39,451 nucleotides of DNA, taken from sequence record PZ445455.1. One strand, 5' to 3'. Within the stretch, counting starts at the first letter, position 1; each line of letters opens with the position of its first letter. Shown one piece after another: positions 32,067 to 38,399 of the stretch. The position numbers were made by a program, and so were the translations under genes. The stretch comes from a phage. The notes beneath the pieces are model-generated. The model did not search any database, was not told the origin of the DNA, and saw nothing but the letters and a program-made list of their open reading frames with translations.

Positions 32067-35000
32067 ATGGATAAGTACGATAAGAACGTACCAAGTGATT
32101 ATGATGGTCTGTTCCAAAAGGCGGCTGATGCCAACGGGGTCTCTTATGACCTTTTACGTAAAGTCGCTTGGACAGAATCACGATTTGTGCCTACAGCAAA
32201 ATCTAAGACTGGACCATTAGGCATGATGCAATTTACCAAGGCAACAGCTAAGGCCCTAGGTCTGAGAGTTACCGATGGTCCAGACGACGACCGACTGAAC
32301 CCTGAGTTAGCCATCAATGCTGCCGCTAAGCACCTTGCAGGTCTGGTGGGTAAATTCGATGGTGACGAACTCAAAGCTGCCCTTGCGTACAACCAAGGCG
32401 AGGGACGCTTGGGTAATCCACAACTTGAGGCGTACTCTAGGGGAGACTTCGCATCCATCTCTGAGGAGGGGCGTAACTACATGCGTAACCTTCTGGATGT
32501 TGCCAAGTCGCCTATGGCTGGACAGTTGGAAACTTTTGGTGGCATAACCCCAAAGGGTAAAGGTATTCCGGCTGAGGTAGGATTGGCTGGAATTGGTCAC
32601 AAGCAGAAAGTAACACAGGAACTTCCTGAGTCCACAAGTTTTGACGTCAAGGGTATCGAACAGGAGGCTCCGGCGAAACCATTCGCCAAGGACTTTTGGG
32701 AGACCCACGGAGAAACACTTGACGAGTACAACAGTCGTTCAACCTTCTTCGGATTCAAAGACGCTGCCGAAGCTGAACTCTCCAACTCAGTCGCTGGAAT
32801 GGCTTTCCGTGCTGGTCGTCTCGATAATGGTTTTGATGTGTTTAAAGACACCATTACGCCGACTCGCTGGAACTCTCACATCTGGACTCCAGAAGAGTTA
32901 GAGAAGATTCGAACCGAGGTTAAGAACCCTGCGTATATCAACGTGGTAACTGGTGGTTCCCCTGAGAATCTTGACGACCTCATTAAGCTGGCTAACGATA
33001 ACTTTGAGAATGACTCACGCGCTGCCGAAGCTGGACTTGGTGCCAAACTGAGTGCTGGCGTTATTGGTGCTGGTGTGGACCCACTCAGCTATGTTCCTAT
33101 GGTCGGTGTAACTGGTAAGGGCTTTAAGTTAATCAATAAGGCTCTTGTAGTTGGTGCCGAAAGTGCTGCTCTGAACGTTGCATCCGAAGGTCTCCGCACC
33201 TCCGTAGCTGGTGGTGACGCAGACTATGCTGGTGCGGCCTTAGGTGGCTTTTTGTTTGGCGCTGGTATGTCTGCAATCAGTGACGCTGTAGCTGCTGGTC
33301 TGAAACGTAGCAAACCAGAAGCTGAGTTCGATAATGAGTTCATTGGCCCTATGATGCGATTGGAAGCCCGTGAGACAGCGCGTAACGCCAACTCTGCGGA
33401 CCTCTCTCGTATGAACACTGAGAACATGAAGTTTGAAGGTGAACATAATGGTGTCCCTTATGAGGACTTACCAACAGAGAGAGGTGCCGTGGTGTTACAT
33501 GATGGCTCCGTTCTAAGTGCAAGCAACCCAATCAACCCTAAGACTCTCCAAGAGTTCTCCGAGGTTGACCCTGAGAAGGCCGCACGAGGAATAAAACTTG
33601 CTGGGTTCACCGAGATTGGCTTGAAGACCTTGGGGTCTGACGATGCTGACATCCGTAGAGTGGCTATCGACCTCGTTCGCTCTCCTACTGGTATGCAGTC
33701 TGGTGCCTCAGGTAAGTTCGGTGCAACAGCTTCTGACATCCATGAGAGACTTCGTGGTACCGACCAGCGTACTTACAATGACCTGTACAAAGCAATGTCT
33801 GACGCTATGAAAGACCCTGAGTTCTCTACTGGCGGCGCTAAGATGTCCCGTGAAGAAACTCGCTACACTATCTACCGTAGAGCGGCACTAGCTATTGAGC
33901 GTCCAGAACTACAGAAGGTACTCACTCCGTCTGAGAGAATCGTTATGGACATCATTAAGCGTCACTTTGACACCAAGCGTGAACTCATGGAGAACCCAGC
34001 AATCTTCGGTAATACGAAGGCTGTTAGTATCTTCCCTGAGAGTCGTCACAAGGGAACATACGTTCCTCATGTTTATGACCGCCATGCTAAGGCGTTGATG
34101 ATTCAACGGTATGGTGCCGAAGGTTTACAGGAGGCCATCAAGAAGTCATGGCTAGCAAGCTATGTGTCAAGACCTGAAGTCAAGGCACGAGTGGACGAGA
34201 TGCTGGCAGGGCAGTTACGGGCATCTCAACCAACAGGTAAGACTGCGGGTACTACACCTAATAAGCACTCTTCTGTCGACACAGCCCGTTACCAGATGAA
34301 ACTGGACGATGCAGCTACACAGGCAAGTGATAAGGTATCGGAACTAAAAGACGTCCTGACCAACGCTGAGAAGCGAGTTGCGGACCGTGAAAGGAAACTC
34401 CAGAACTCCAAGGACAGACTAGCTTCGCATGAGGCTAAGCTGAAGGAGTTGGAAGAAAAACTAGCTGCTAAACCTAATAGCAAAACCCTTCCTGTTAAGA
34501 TTGAGAGCCGGAAGCAGATGATTGAGACCCAGAAGTCTCACGTCCGTATTAACACAGAGCGTCTCGACTACATGAAAGGACAGGCTGCTAGGGTCCAAGA
34601 CAGAATCACCAAAGCCGCCGCCGAAGCTGAAGCAGCCGCCTCCGCTGCCAAAGGGCAGAAGACTACTGTTGGCGGTGAGGACACTACTGCTGGTGAGGCT
34701 ATATTAGGTAACGCACCTCAATCAGTACAAGAGGTGACTATGGACATGGTCGAGAAGTACGCTATGGACAAGGCATATGGTATCTCCCACTCTGACCAGT
34801 TCTCCAACAGCTCCGTAATTGAAGAGAACATTGAGGGCCTAGTAGGTATTGAGAACAACTCGTTCCTTGAAGCCCGTAACTTGTTTGATTCTGACATATC
34901 TATCACAATGCCGGACGGACAACAGTTTGCGGTGAACGACCTAAGGGACTTCGATATGTTCCGCATCATGCCAGCGTATGACCGCCGTATCAACGGCGAC

Positions 35001-36527
35001 ATCGCCATCATGGGGTCTACCGGTAAAACCACTAAGGAACTTAAGGATGAGATTTTGGCTCTCAAAGCGAAAGCTGAGGGAGACGGTAAGAAGACAGGCG
35101 AGGTCCATGCTCTCATGGATACCATTAAGATTCTTACTGGTCGTGCTCGACGCAATCAGGACACTGTGTGGGAAACCTCACTGCGTTCCATCAATGACCT
35201 AGGGTTCTTCGCTAAGAACGCCTATATGGGTGCTCAGAACCTTACGGAGATTGCTGGGATGATTGCCACGGGTAACGTGCGTGCTCTTGGTCACGGTATC
35301 CCAATTCTACGCGATACCCTCTACAAGTCTAAACCAGTTTCCGCTAAGGAACTCAAGGAACTCCATGCGTCTCTATTCGGGAAGGAGGTGGACCAGTTGA
35401 TTCGCCCTAAACGTGCTGACATTGTGCAGCGCCTAAGGGAAGCTACTGATACCGGACCTGCTGTGGCGAACATCGTAGGGACCTTGAAGTATTCCACACA
35501 GGAACTGGCTGCTCGCTCTCCGTGGACTAAGATGCTGAACGGAACCACTAACTACCTTCTTGATGCTGCGCGTCAAGGTATGCTTGGGGACGTTATCAGT
35601 GCCACCTTAACAGGTAAGACTACCCGTTGGGAGAAAGAGGGATTCCTTCGGGGTGCCTCTGTGACCCCTGAGCAGATGGCTGGCATCAAGTCTCTCATCA
35701 AGGAACACATGGTACGCGGTGAGGACGGTAAGTTTACCGTTAAGGACAAGCAAGCGTTCTCTATGGACCCTCGCGCTATGGACTTATGGCGACTTGCTGA
35801 CAAGGTAGCTGATGAGGCAATGCTGCGTCCGCATAAGGTGTCCTTACAGGATTCCCATGCGTTCGGGGCATTAGGGAAGATGGTCATGCAGTTTAAGTCC
35901 TTCACTATCAAATCCCTTAACTCTAAGTTCCTGCGAACCTTCTACGACGGGTACAAGAACAACCGAGCGATTGACGCTGCGCTGACTGGCATTATCTCTA
36001 TGGGTCTCGCTGGTGGTTACTACGCTATGGCTGCACACGTCAAAGCGTATGGAATGCCTAAGGAGAAACGTAAAGAATACTTGGAGCGTGCATTGGACCC
36101 AACCATGATTGCCCATGCTTCGTTGTCTCGTAGTTCTCAATTGGGCGCTCCTTTGGCTATGGCTGACCTAGTTGGCGGTGTCTTAGGGTTCGAGTCCTCC
36201 AAGATGGCTCGCTCTACGATTCTACCTAAGGACACCATGAAGGAACGTGACCCAAACAAACCGTACACCTCAAGAGAGGTAATGGGAGCTATGGGTTCGA
36301 ACCTTCTGGAGCAGATGCCTTCCGCTGGCTTTGTGGCTAACGTAGGGGCTACCTTAATGAATGCTGCTGGTGTGGTTAATTCACCTAACAAGGCAACCGA
36401 GCAGGACTTCATGACTGGCTTGATGAACTCTACCAAAGAGTTGGTCCCTAACGACCCTCTTACTCAACAGCTTGTTATGAAAATTTATGAGGCCAATGGT
36501 GTTAACTTGAGGGAGCGTCGGAAATAA
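32067..36527 (+). CDS. 16: Internal core / ejection protein gp16 with N-terminal lytic transglycosylase domain; contains about 175-aa insertion
   Basis: 1486 aa versus 1318 in T7; N-terminal transglycosylase region (TESRF...GPLGMMQFTKAT) and rest collinear with T7 gp16 except segment 34206-34730. Confidence 0.95.
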   Translation: MDKYDKNVPSDYDGLFQKAADANGVSYDLLRKVAWTESRFVPTAKSKTGPLGMMQFTKATAKALGLRVTDGPDDDRLNPELAINAAAKHLAGLVGKFDGDELKAALAYNQGEGRLGNPQLEAYSRGDFASISEEGRNYMRNLLDVAKSPMAGQLETFGGITPKGKGIPAEVGLAGIGHKQKVTQELPESTSFDVKGIEQEAPAKPFAKDFWETHGETLDEYNSRSTFFGFKDAAEAELSNSVAGMAFRAGRLDNGFDVFKDTITPTRWNSHIWTPEELEKIRTEVKNPAYINVVTGGSPENLDDLIKLANDNFENDSRAAEAGLGAKLSAGVIGAGVDPLSYVPMVGVTGKGFKLINKALVVGAESAALNVASEGLRTSVAGGDADYAGAALGGFLFGAGMSAISDAVAAGLKRSKPEAEFDNEFIGPMMRLEARETARNANSADLSRMNTENMKFEGEHNGVPYEDLPTERGAVVLHDGSVLSASNPINPKTLQEFSEVDPEKAARGIKLAGFTEIGLKTLGSDDADIRRVAIDLVRSPTGMQSGASGKFGATASDIHERLRGTDQRTYNDLYKAMSDAMKDPEFSTGGAKMSREETRYTIYRRAALAIERPELQKVLTPSERIVMDIIKRHFDTKRELMENPAIFGNTKAVSIFPESRHKGTYVPHVYDRHAKALMIQRYGAEGLQEAIKKSWLASYVSRPEVKARVDEMLAGQLRASQPTGKTAGTTPNKHSSVDTARYQMKLDDAATQASDKVSELKDVLTNAEKRVADRERKLQNSKDRLASHEAKLKELEEKLAAKPNSKTLPVKIESRKQMIETQKSHVRINTERLDYMKGQAARVQDRITKAAAEAEAAASAAKGQKTTVGGEDTTAGEAILGNAPQSVQEVTMDMVEKYAMDKAYGISHSDQFSNSSVIEENIEGLVGIENNSFLEARNLFDSDISITMPDGQQFAVNDLRDFDMFRIMPAYDRRINGDIAIMGSTGKTTKELKDEILALKAKAEGDGKKTGEVHALMDTIKILTGRARRNQDTVWETSLRSINDLGFFAKNAYMGAQNLTEIAGMIATGNVRALGHGIPILRDTLYKSKPVSAKELKELHASLFGKEVDQLIRPKRADIVQRLREATDTGPAVANIVGTLKYSTQELAARSPWTKMLNGTTNYLLDAARQGMLGDVISATLTGKTTRWEKEGFLRGASVTPEQMAGIKSLIKEHMVRGEDGKFTVKDKQAFSMDPRAMDLWRLADKVADEAMLRPHKVSLQDSHAFGALGKMVMQFKSFTIKSLNSKFLRTFYDGYKNNRAIDAALTGIISMGLAGGYYAMAAHVKAYGMPKEKRKEYLERALDPTMIAHASLSRSSQLGAPLAMADLVGGVLGFESSKMARSTILPKDTMKERDPNKPYTSREVMGAMGSNLLEQMPSAGFVANVGATLMNAAGVVNSPNKATEQDFMTGLMNSTKELVPNDPLTQQLVMKIYEANGVNLRERRK

Positions 36528-36547
36528 TACGACTCACTATAGGGAGA
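36525..36547 (+). promoter_or_regulatory. Phage promoter phi17
   Basis: taatacgactcactatagggaga; overlaps gene 16 stop. Confidence 0.9.
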
Positions 36548-36599: not shown

Positions 36600-38399
36600 A
36601 TGGCTAACGTAATTAAAACCGTTTTGACTTACCAGTTAGATGGCTCCAATCGTGATTTTAATATCCCGTTTGAGTATCTAGCCCGTAAGTTCGTAGTGGT
36701 AACTCTTATTGGTGTAGACCGCAAGGTCCTTACGATTAATACAGACTACCGTTTTGCTACGCGTACTACCATCTCACTGACCAAGGCTTGGGGTCCGGCA
36801 GATGGCTACACTACCATCGAGTTACGTCGAGTAACCTCCACGACCGACCGCTTGGTTGACTTTACGGACGGCTCAATCCTCCGTGCGTATGACCTTAACG
36901 TTGCTCAGATTCAAACGATGCACGTAGCAGAAGAGGCCCGTGACCTAACTGCCGATACTATCGGTGTCAATAATGATGGTCACTTGGATGCGCGCGGTCG
37001 TCGAATTGTCAACCTAGCGAACGCCGTGGATGACCGTGATGCTGTTCCGTTTGGTCAACTTAAGACCATGAACCAGAACTCGTGGCAAGCACGTAATGAG
37101 GCCCTTCAGTTCCGTAATGAGGCTGAGACTTTCAGAAATCAAGCGGAGGGCTTTAAAACTGAGTCAGGTGCTAATGCTACTAATACGAAGCAGTGGCGTG
37201 ATGATGCTAAGGGGTTCCGAGATGAAGCCGAGCAGTTCAAGAATACGGCTGGTCAATATGCTACATCTGCTGGGAACTCTGCTACTGCTGCGCATCAATC
37301 TGAGGTAAACGCTGAGAACTCTGCCACAGCATCCGCTAACTCTGCCCATTCGGCAGAACAGCAAGCAGACCGCGCTAAGAGCGAGGCTGATAAGCTGGCG
37401 AATAATAATGCGTTCGCGGGGACGCTACACTCTATAACCCCAGATAACCCTGCTGTAATGGGCTCAGGTACTGTTACCTTCAAGTCGTCCTATGCGGTGA
37501 ATGCTCCAATACTTAGGGCGACAAAAGGTGGCATGTCTCTGGGGAGCGATAGAGTTGATGGAGATGGTACCTCCACGTTCATCAACTTCTACAAAGACTC
37601 TAGAAACACTGTAGGTAGTATTCAAGTAGGAGATGACGGCACATTCACCATAAATTCCAACGGCTGGACGAAACTCGCTGGCAGCGTCACACAGGTGAAC
37701 CAGCTGCGTTCTGGATACTCAGAGGTTACAGTAAACAACAACAATGTAGCCGTCCACGCCAGAGCAACAAATCTCAGTTGGGATGATGGTCAGACAAACG
37801 CAGTATATAACAGATACACGATTGCAGGACGAGGGTCTAGCGTCGAAGGGGTAGATGGAGCGATAATGGATTTTGGCATACGAGAGATAGTAGGTAACAG
37901 GTATGAGGCATATATGTGGGTAGCAGGCTTTGGTAGATCAGCTGTGTGGACATTTGGTCATACTGGCACGTTCACCAGCCCAGCCGATATAGTAGCCAAC
38001 GGGTCGTTAGTCGCTGGTAACAGTCTACGTATTGGGACATGTACCCACGCTTCCGATGGCAACATTTTTGGCTCTATCTGGGGTAACGATTGGTTAAGCA
38101 ATTACCTAAACAGGTCGTTTAAAAGGAAAACCAAAGAATGGACTTCGGTGTGGAATGGGAGAATAGGTGCTGGAGGTGTAGCATGGCTGACCCAAGATGT
38201 ACGTTTTAGAACCATTTGGATACGCACAGAGGCCCGGCCTTCTACGTGGACGCCAATTCAACTGGGCCCTGATGGGATGTACATGGCGCGACCTGACCCT
38301 GGCTGGATTCGGTTCACACTGGCTAACAATGGTACGTCCATAACCAACAACCAAGATGATAACTCTGTTCCTATCGAGATTGCCGTAGAGAATGAGTAA
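36600..38399 (+). CDS. 17: Tail fiber protein gp17 with divergent distal (receptor-binding) domain
   Basis: 599 aa; first about 260 aa near-identical to T7 gp17; remainder divergent but retains scattered gp17 tip motifs and C-terminal ...VENE. Confidence 0.93.
   Translation: MANVIKTVLTYQLDGSNRDFNIPFEYLARKFVVVTLIGVDRKVLTINTDYRFATRTTISLTKAWGPADGYTTIELRRVTSTTDRLVDFTDGSILRAYDLNVAQIQTMHVAEEARDLTADTIGVNNDGHLDARGRRIVNLANAVDDRDAVPFGQLKTMNQNSWQARNEALQFRNEAETFRNQAEGFKTESGANATNTKQWRDDAKGFRDEAEQFKNTAGQYATSAGNSATAAHQSEVNAENSATASANSAHSAEQQADRAKSEADKLANNNAFAGTLHSITPDNPAVMGSGTVTFKSSYAVNAPILRATKGGMSLGSDRVDGDGTSTFINFYKDSRNTVGSIQVGDDGTFTINSNGWTKLAGSVTQVNQLRSGYSEVTVNNNNVAVHARATNLSWDDGQTNAVYNRYTIAGRGSSVEGVDGAIMDFGIREIVGNRYEAYMWVAGFGRSAVWTFGHTGTFTSPADIVANGSLVAGNSLRIGTCTHASDGNIFGSIWGNDWLSNYLNRSFKRKTKEWTSVWNGRIGAGGVAWLTQDVRFRTIWIRTEARPSTWTPIQLGPDGMYMARPDPGWIRFTLANNGTSITNNQDDNSVPIEIAVENE

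Follow-up and report, generated by a model that had tools for sequence, protein, structure and literature searches.

Sequence evidence for a laterally exchanged cassette, predicted to fold as a tethered coiled-coil hairpin, in ejection protein gp16 of T7-like phages

Introduction

The phage sequence PZ445455.1, whose 39,451 nucleotides are called the window here, carries a gene 16 (32067..36527, plus strand) that encodes gp16, the internal virion (ejection) protein D. This open reading frame is 1486 aa long, compared with 1318 aa in T7. An initial annotation, made from the letters of the window, had pointed out this difference, on which the open reading frame and the T7 annotation agree, and had suggested that a coiled-coil extension may alter the length of the trans-envelope channel or the spanning of the envelope by gp16. 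The locus thus raises the question of what the additional residues are, how they came to lie within an essential ejection protein and what they may do there. In this study, the extra residues were found to form one block in an internal loop of gp16, and sequence comparison identified the core of this block as a cassette exchanged laterally among four genera of T7-like phages.

Previous studies have outlined the topology of T7 gp16. Residues 1-228 are periplasmic and comprise a transglycosylase and a 'molecular tape'; residues 243-410 and 1119-1290 are putative membrane regions; and gp16-C (residues 411-1118) is a DNA-binding toroid seen in the cytoplasm by tomography (PMC8954989). The missense changes G737D, I754T and E761K release a clamp, so that the whole genome enters without transcription (PMC8954989). 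The clamp segment has been given as 127 residues, with exact bounds that are quoted second-hand. The channel wall is made by gp15, and Glu37 has been described as the catalytic residue of the gp16 transglycosylase (bioRxiv 10.1101/2021.01.04.424714). In the mature virion, gp16 is the top ring of the internal core, with the genome around it (PMC8954989, PMC11784390). Of all parts of the T7 ejectosome, gp16-C is understood least: entry into the cytoplasm, DNA binding and clamping of genome entry are attributed to it, but no high-resolution view of its ejected state exists.

Results

The additional sequence of gp16 is one contiguous block, because HMMER aligned both flanks collinearly with the T7 protein in the PDB (window aa 1-714 with T7 1-714, and aa 886-1486 with T7 718-1318; 2837 bits). 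This phmmer match, collinear over the full length, was to the T7 gp16 chains 7eyb, 7k5c and 6yt5. The block comprises aa 715-885 (171 aa, 513 nt; 34209..34721, plus strand) in place of T7 E715-H717, a net gain of 168 aa, and the same block was returned by MAFFT alignments of protein and of DNA. Outside it, gp16 is 97% identical to T7 in the MAFFT alignment. The interval proposed by the initial annotation, 34206-34730, which corresponds to aa 714-888, was essentially right, and the flanks that it had quoted (VKARVDEML before and VTMDMVEKYAMDKAYGISHSDQF after) were borne out. Furthermore, the alignment fixed the breakpoints, and the extra residues lay neither elsewhere in the protein nor scattered as small indels.

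The insertion site (T7 714-718) falls within an inter-helix loop of gp16-C, 19 residues upstream of G737, between two conserved segments. Upstream, the anchor RPEVKARVDEML (aa 702-713; 34170..34205, plus strand) is near-invariant across genera and helical in the AlphaFold2 model, and it ends just 5' of the insertion point. Downstream, the segment MDMVEKYAMDKAYGISHSDQFSNSSVIEENIEGLVGIE (aa 892-929; 34740..34853, plus strand) holds G905, I922 and E929, which correspond to T7 G737, I754 and E761 and are invariant in the alignment.

The insert consists of a helical core between two linkers. The N-linker, of a type here called alpha (GQLRASQPTGKTAGTTPNKHSSV, aa 715-737, 23 aa; 34209..34277, plus strand), is predicted to be disordered, with a predicted local distance difference test score (pLDDT) <50 over aa 718-734, and 74% of its residues are A, G, S, T, P, Q or N. 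The core cassette (aa 738-854, 117 aa, 351 nt; 34278..34628, plus strand) is a separable, exchanged unit, as judged from a linker-only allele and from nucleotide and synonymous identity. The C-linker, also of alpha type (EAAASAAKGQKTTVGGEDTTAGEAILGNAPQ, aa 855-885, 31 aa; 34629..34721, plus strand), is 71% A, G, S, T, P, Q or N; its first ~10 residues complete the second helix of the fold and the remainder is predicted to be disordered (pLDDT <50 over aa 867-891). At the 5' edge of the core lies GACACAGCC (34278..34286, plus strand), the first copy of an imperfect 9-nt direct repeat, and GAAGCAGCC (34629..34637, plus strand), which matches it at 7 of 9 bases on comparison, lies directly 3' of the core. 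This repeat is weak evidence and could be due to chance.

The fold of the core was predicted with confidence to be a two-stranded antiparallel coiled-coil hairpin on floppy tethers. In the AlphaFold2 model of aa 700-900, helices of 68 and 58 residues are antiparallel and joined by a 6-residue loop, with 117 residues at pLDDT >=90 and the linkers below 50. Helix 1 (aa 734-801; 34266..34469, plus strand) has pLDDT >90; the non-helical tip loop KPNSKT (aa 802-807; 34470..34487, plus strand) is invariant at 5 of its 6 positions in 12 copies; and helix 2 (aa 808-865; 34488..34661, plus strand) was defined by the model together with heptad analysis. From the helix lengths, the hairpin should be ~9-10 nm long. 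The hairpin was reproduced in a second construct of 876 aa, of which the rest was not folded by the model (mean pLDDT 40.5, predicted template modelling score 0.28). The model of the host domain was poor, and only the hairpin was confident, because the input alignment was 94-97% identical. Both helices have a dominant hydrophobic period of 3.5 residues, and the a/d positions are hydrophobic at fractions of 0.68 and 0.76 against backgrounds of 0.35 and 0.40.

The closest structures found with Foldseek were antiparallel coiled-coil hairpins only, namely YscO of the type III secretion system, the iSH2 region of PI3K p85, the colicin E3 stalk and the arms of SMC and EnvC. The best of these, YscO, gave template modelling scores of 0.57/0.70 and a root-mean-square deviation of 2.9 A. 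None of the Foldseek matches reached E <= 1e-3 and identities were 8-17%; these arms are alike in generic architecture and length, and the likeness to the hairpin is one of shape and not of homology. The heptad-like pattern seen by the initial annotation therefore agrees with the model, the period and the structural neighbours, and its description of the insert as rich in Lys, Glu and Ala also held (13.7% Ala, 13.7% Lys and 9.4% Glu in the core). Its description as low-complexity helical sequence was right as to the helices and as to the two linkers, but the core is not of low complexity. The core is 39% charged, with a net charge of +6. Scans of the insert with Pfam and PHROGs gave only sub-threshold matches of the tropomyosin or filament type, which were taken as compositional, and no homology to any characterised effector was found with Pfam, PHROGs or exhaustive HMMER.

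The insert is rare among T7-like phages. The survey comprised tblastn on phages, IMG/VR and a longer gp16-C query against a large protein database. With megablast and tblastn, the insert was found in 19 of the 1266 phage records with a gp16-C homologue (1.5%), representing ~14 distinct phages, and 117 of the 120 closest gp16 clusters are 1317-1318 aa long. It is accordingly not common among T7-like gp16 proteins, but neither is it unique to this phage. The carriers are NC-A and Yep_9 in Teseptimavirus; P483, A7, PZJ0206 and Carena in Berlinvirus; ST31, PH1061 and Kc166A in Kayfunavirus; and Klebsiella phage VIPKPNMC04 in Przondovirus. Further matches, with genus unassigned here, were Klebsiella phages phi1_146025 and phi1_146017, ZH4 and CY1, and Bas105 is also a carrier, with a taxonomy line that ends at Caudoviricetes and a Kayfunavirus-like gp16. 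The hosts of carriers are E. coli, Shigella, Klebsiella, Enterobacter, Kosakonia and Yersinia. IMG/VR gave no new carriers of the helical cassette, and no match to it was found in 5,426 complete E. coli genomes or in plasmids. No donor outside gp16 was found, as an exhaustive HMMER search of 1.84 billion representatives returned nothing beyond a fragment of gp16 and one coiled-coil protein of generic type (P0124).

Several annotations of these gp16 proteins call for comment. The gp16 of phage Carena (L008:1534-5826) has an annotated start at MQFTKATGQA, giving 1430 aa, and looks truncated; in sister Berlinviruses, the start is a GTG that lies ~55 residues further upstream (VDKYNPNEPH), and the start given for Carena is probably an annotation artefact. 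Moreover, three T7-type gp16 proteins (P0049, P0072 and P0122) are labelled Staphylococcus hyicus, Enterococcus phage EFA-2 and Xylella fastidiosa, and these labels most likely reflect contamination of assemblies by T7-like phages. In Kayfunavirus (ST31, L004:1437-5822; also L007, L009 and L012), gp16 has an unrelated N-terminus, MATRGIRNNNPGNIR, instead of the first ~150 residues of T7, the region of the SLT domain; on this comparison, it is a second mosaic point in the same protein.

The same site of gp16 was found in five states: without insert, with linkers only, with the helical core, with a GNAT-like domain, and with hairpin and GNAT-like domain in tandem. In the linkers-only allele (1369-1370 aa; P0003 and P0004; DNA L017:1501-5610 on a Logan contig of SRR32236143), which was found in two T7-like clusters, both linkers are present and exactly aa 738-854 are absent (1486-117=1369), so that this allele represents either an unoccupied landing pad or the product of a clean deletion. 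Where no module is present, the loop is 20-24 aa long. The GNAT-like module, a globular domain of ~150 aa in the same loop, was present in 14 records (~12 distinct T7-like phages of several genera). It stands alone in the gp16 of Berlinvirus pO103 and PP74, Przondovirus FOPMU1, Kayfunavirus EcpYZU01, Yersinia phage WX2 and a metagenomic sequence (L054), and in Shigella phage A7 it stands in tandem with the hairpin within a 1644-aa gp16; the GNAT-bearing loci are L021:1391-5902 (pO103), L010:1290-6224 (A7), L023, L024, L025, L026 and L054. The module matched Pfam PF00583 (Acetyltransf_1) at 24.8 bits, above the cutoff of 20.7 (E 2.9e-5), and has RRKGIA at the acetyl-CoA motif A (R/Q-x-x-G-x-G/A), by which it is classed as a GNAT acetyltransferase-like domain of putative activity. 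Hardies et al. have pointed only to a resemblance between acetyltransferases and IVP-A (gp13), which is a separate protein.

Two linker families, alpha and beta, occur in mosaic combinations with these modules. The alpha N-linker is kept in L017, P0003 and P0004, and an unrelated beta linker, with an ENFLR(S/G)xE junction, is found instead in P483, A7 and Yep_9. The motif (T/A)ENFLR(S/G)xE precedes the helical core in P483, A7 and Yep_9 and the GNAT-like domain in A7, pO103, PP74 and FOPMU1 (L003, L010, L011, L021, L023, L024), and may be a recombination or structural adaptor between modules. In virions of A7, the 1644-aa gp16 has been identified by 111 unique peptides (72.9% coverage) in the top gel band (PMC8427288). 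The modules therefore stay in the packaged protein, as the A7 gp16 is found there at full size. That the block is a modular, laterally exchanged cassette, the site of which holds a GNAT-like domain in other phages, was not visible to the initial annotation.

Evidence of lateral exchange came from synonymous sites. Compared with copies in Berlinvirus, Przondovirus and Kayfunavirus phages, the core was 0.8-0.99 identical at these sites, whereas the gp16 flanks were ~0.5 identical. In codon-aware comparisons at 4-fold sites, identity of the window to P483 was 0.98 in the core and 0.45 in the gp16 flanks; the values were 0.94 and 0.45 for PZJ0206 and A7, 0.82 and 0.37 for the Klebsiella phage, and 0.83 and 0.41 for Yep_9. 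Over 63 inter-genus pairs, synonymous third-position identity averaged 0.79 in the core against 0.51 in the flanks, and Fisher tests gave p from 3e-16 to 9e-6. Flank figures are from aligned analyses; ungapped dN/dS (the ratio of nonsynonymous to synonymous divergence) over 300-flank stretches was probably mis-registered for more distant pairs. A 45-nt sliding window outlined a sharp island of 0.9-1.0 nucleotide identity to phages of other genera, the edges of which vary by phage: the core only for P483 and Yep_9; N-linker and core for Carena; and both linkers, the core and ~45 nt further for PZJ0206, the Klebsiella phage and ST31.

Selection at the protein level is ruled out as the source of this island, since it cannot conserve synonymous sites, and an overlapping nucleic-acid constraint would not account for a synonymous divergence (dS) of the core that is specific to the copy and ranges from 0.026 to 1.27. 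On these comparisons, the core is a laterally exchanged cassette that has recombined repeatedly and recently among Teseptimavirus, Berlinvirus, Przondovirus and Kayfunavirus, with breakpoints that vary from phage to phage. Inside Kayfunavirus itself, core and flanks have diverged together (0.89 in both for ST31-PH1061; dS 1.16 in the core and 1.20 in the flank for ST31-Bas105). Because core and flanks diverge in step there, these data suggest that the cassette was long resident in Kayfunavirus and was later exported to other genera. Lateral exchange and variable domain content of gp16 are also features of the mosaicism already known for podovirus ejection proteins. The known cases are swaps of whole genes or terminal domains, such as the lysozyme domain on gp15 or on gp16 and the T3/Sxt1 exchange of gp15-gp17 (PMC8954989, PMC11680406), whereas the unit described here is a 351-nt sub-genic cassette in an internal loop, with alternative occupants and a linker-only 'empty' allele. 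In two carriers, VIPKPNMC04 (L006:971-1378) and PH1061 (L007:1006-1455), HNH homing-endonuclease genes lie between genes 15 and 16, ~2 kb from the cassette.

The core is, as judged from its substitutions, old and under long-term purifying selection, which is strongest on the distal, net-basic two-thirds. In old pairs (dS ~1.0-1.3), dN/dS was 0.09-0.10 in the core and ~0.05 in its distal part. Across 12 copies, ~80% of positions are invariant in aa 761-833 (the distal two-thirds including the tip), compared with 0.29-0.48 at the hairpin base, and the net charge of the distal half is ~+7 by residue count. Moreover, solvent-facing b/c/f positions of the distal part are as often invariant (0.79) as a/d positions (0.79) in these copies. 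A mere spacer would drift on its surface, yet the surface positions are conserved, which indicates a specific interaction surface on the distal half of the predicted hairpin.

With regard to the remainder of the gene and its surroundings, the window protein belongs unambiguously, by its sequence, to the T7-type gp16 family (PHROG 342). The profile of this family matches aa 1-1483 (1333.8 bits), and the Pfam SLT domain matches aa 15-127 (105.7 bits, cutoff 21.3), where the segment VAWTESRF with E37 is identical to T7. The C-terminal basic pentapeptide, RERRK, is also identical to T7. Collinearity, SLT domain, clamp residues and basic C-terminus are thus shared with T7 gp16 (PDB 7EYB, 7K5C and 6YT5); in contrast, T7 and ~98% of gp16 homologues are without the tethered coiled-coil hairpin, where this phage has 171 residues. 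Gene 16 lies, as in T7, after gene 15 and before the tail-fibre gene 17, and the phi17 promoter follows it, with an exact T7 promoter consensus at 36525..36547. The phage is a Teseptimavirus with exact T7 promoters. Its best whole-genome relatives are Bas103, Bas104 and JeanTinguely, ~92-93% identical, none of which is among the insert-bearing records, and no near-identical deposit was found. Gene 17 (36600..38399, 599 aa) is mosaic: its sole full-length match is phage LNA7 (94.9%), and T7, T3, 13a and others match only the N-terminal ~45%, the receptor-binding C-terminal half being unlike T7.

Discussion

On balance, the reading that we favour, by a small measure of confidence above even, is that the insert is an accessory, tethered interaction arm, an optional module for host adaptation or counter-defence that is displayed on the cytoplasmic hub of ejected gp16. 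In the literature model, gp16 is ejected and gp16-C reaches the cytoplasm. There, the hairpin would swing out from the ring beside the DNA-clamp region and, in the first moments of infection and ahead of phage gene expression, would specifically bind either the incoming DNA or a host factor. It would thus be a selectable module and not a part of the conduit, and it would spread by recombination between co-infecting T7-like phages followed by selection, a route that is proposed because the cassette carries no mobility gene. Exposure of the site to the cytoplasm would also fit the GNAT-like occupant, because such a domain would need acetyl-CoA.

Several points weigh against this proposal. Coiled-coil hairpins are generic, and the predicted fold says little on function. 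The cassette is rare (1.5% of gp16-bearing records), and its carriers infect heterogeneous hosts, among which no host or defence correlate emerged. In addition, the cytoplasmic position of gp16-C is a literature model derived from low-resolution tomography and genetics and not an observed structure, the AlphaFold2 model of the gp16-C host domain was of low confidence (mean pLDDT 40.5), and that the loop is exposed at the surface is deduced from the 0 to ~330 extra residues that it tolerates. The cassette also moves between beta- and alpha-linker contexts, in which flanking homology is poor.

The rival explanations differ in where and when the hairpin would act. The possibility raised by the initial annotation, that a long helical insert in an ejectosome component lengthens the trans-envelope channel or changes how gp16 spans the envelope, appears very improbable. 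The site lies in gp16-C (411-1118), which the literature model places in the cytoplasm, and not in gp16-N (1-228, the periplasmic tunnel) or the membrane regions (243-410 and 1119-1290), and the channel wall is built by gp15. An antiparallel hairpin between flexible linkers projects sideways and returns the chain to the loop from which it started, so that it adds no in-line length; moreover, helices that are 39% charged are not membrane-like, and the hosts of the carriers differ strongly in envelope. It is rather unlikely, although deserving of more weight, that the hairpin acts before ejection, reaching from the gp16 tetramer atop the core stack into the packaged DNA and thereby affecting assembly, spooling, head stability or the timing of ejection. 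The insert-bearing protein is indeed packaged, the gp16 ring is surrounded by the genome in the virion (PMC8954989, PMC11784390), and a core with a net charge of +6 would suit contact with DNA. A packing element should, however, co-evolve with core, portal and genome length, whereas the cassette moves between genera with gp16 flanks that are ~52-68% identical; the alternative GNAT-like occupant would have no obvious role in a DNA-filled capsid, and disordered tethers argue against a fixed architecture.

The position of the insert also suggests an action of the hairpin on the gp16-C clamp or motor itself, without an external partner, by which the amount or speed of DNA entry before transcription would be modulated. 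This idea draws on the distance of only 19 residues to G737, with I754 and E761 shortly downstream, on the release of entry from transcription by mutations at these residues, and on the invariance of G905, I922 and E929 in the window protein. It is nevertheless quite improbable, as it explains neither a GNAT-like domain as an equivalent occupant nor the flexible linkers of 20-30 residues between the hairpin and the clamp helices, and most T7-like phages work without the cassette. Finally, patchy and laterally transferred sequence that is dispensable in most relatives might be functionless or selfish DNA that a mobile element (an intron, an intein or a homing cassette) left in frame in a permissive loop, as the HNH genes between genes 15 and 16 of two carriers and the imperfect 9-nt repeat at the core edges could be taken to hint. 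We regard this as highly unlikely, given purifying selection over dS >1 (dN/dS 0.05-0.10), conserved surface residues, an all-helical fold, the lack of an Rfam family, of intein termini and of an endonuclease gene, and the presence in virions of the tandem-module A7 gp16 at its full predicted size. The interaction arm thus remains the favoured reading.

Specific candidates of the mobile-element kind, and one of another kind, were examined and rejected. An intein was rejected because the insert begins GQL after EMLA and ends NAPQ before SVQE, its fold is all-helical, and A7 gp16 is full-size in virions. A group I or II intron or a structured RNA was likewise rejected, as no Rfam match at E <= 1 was found in 33900..35000 and the reading frame is uninterrupted. 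A homing-endonuclease cassette was set aside since the insert holds no endonuclease open reading frame, and no further gene separates genes 15 and 16 in the window. Alternative-frame open reading frames in or overlapping the insert are only 38-64 aa long; a minus-strand open reading frame of 145 aa (34718..35155) touches only the last 4 nt of the insert. The insert DNA has no T7 promoter, and sites resembling promoters or terminators are not in excess there. Inteins and group I introns in T7-like genes are also patchy, laterally spreading insertions in essential phage genes; the present insert differs in having no splicing signatures, Rfam match or endonuclease, and in being translated, with related modules kept in a virion protein. 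Because most T7 genome entry depends on transcription, a hairpin of the GreA/DksA type entering the secondary channel of RNA polymerase was considered. Factors of this type have acidic tips. The KPNSKT tip is basic, and no such factor was among the 50 fold-search matches listed, so that this candidate was rejected as unsupported.

A more far-reaching proposal, which we put forward tentatively and as the possible and not the expected case, is that T7-like phages use the gp16 loop at T7 residues 714-718 as a dedicated cargo slot. Its interchangeable effectors (a conserved basic coiled-coil arm, a GNAT-like domain or both) would be displayed where the ejectosome faces the cytoplasm, would enter together with the genome's leading end, act before gene expression, for example against defence or on a host factor at the site of entry, and be traded between genera under an arms race. 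Packaging of the inserted modules is supported by the gp16 identity and by the A7 virion proteomics, and its ejection and the cytoplasmic exposure of gp16-C come from the literature model.

DarA, DarB and Hdf of P1, IPI* of T4 and the virion RNA polymerase of N4 are packaged in the head, are delivered with the DNA and act before phage gene expression. By analogy, the cassette or the GNAT-like domain would be delivered in the same way, as parts of gp16. The P1 Dar proteins, T4 IPI* and N4 virion RNA polymerase are separate proteins with demonstrated activities, whereas the modules described here, as putative effectors, form part of a loop in an essential ejection protein. A search of the literature yielded no account of a gp16 with an internal cassette slot, this hairpin or an embedded GNAT domain.

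In conclusion, a natural permissive loop next to the clamp residues takes 0 to ~330 extra residues, including an enzyme-like domain, which provides an independent argument for exposure of this face of gp16 to solvent and cytoplasm. The loop also offers a site, already at hand, at which T7-like phages could be engineered to carry tags or cargo. The hairpin and the GNAT-like domain are candidate effectors that would act ahead of phage gene expression, and their recent spread over four genera, together with purifying selection over the long term, is what one would expect of modules for host range or counter-defence. The hairpin alone is of modest interest; the main interest lies in a slot with interchangeable modules beside the clamp and with arms-race-like dynamics. 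Should the proposal of a cargo slot prove wrong, the cassette keeps its value as a marker for recombination below the gene level in therapeutic T7-like phages. If it is true, small podoviruses would have in the slot a new means of delivering accessory functions that needs no additional genes.

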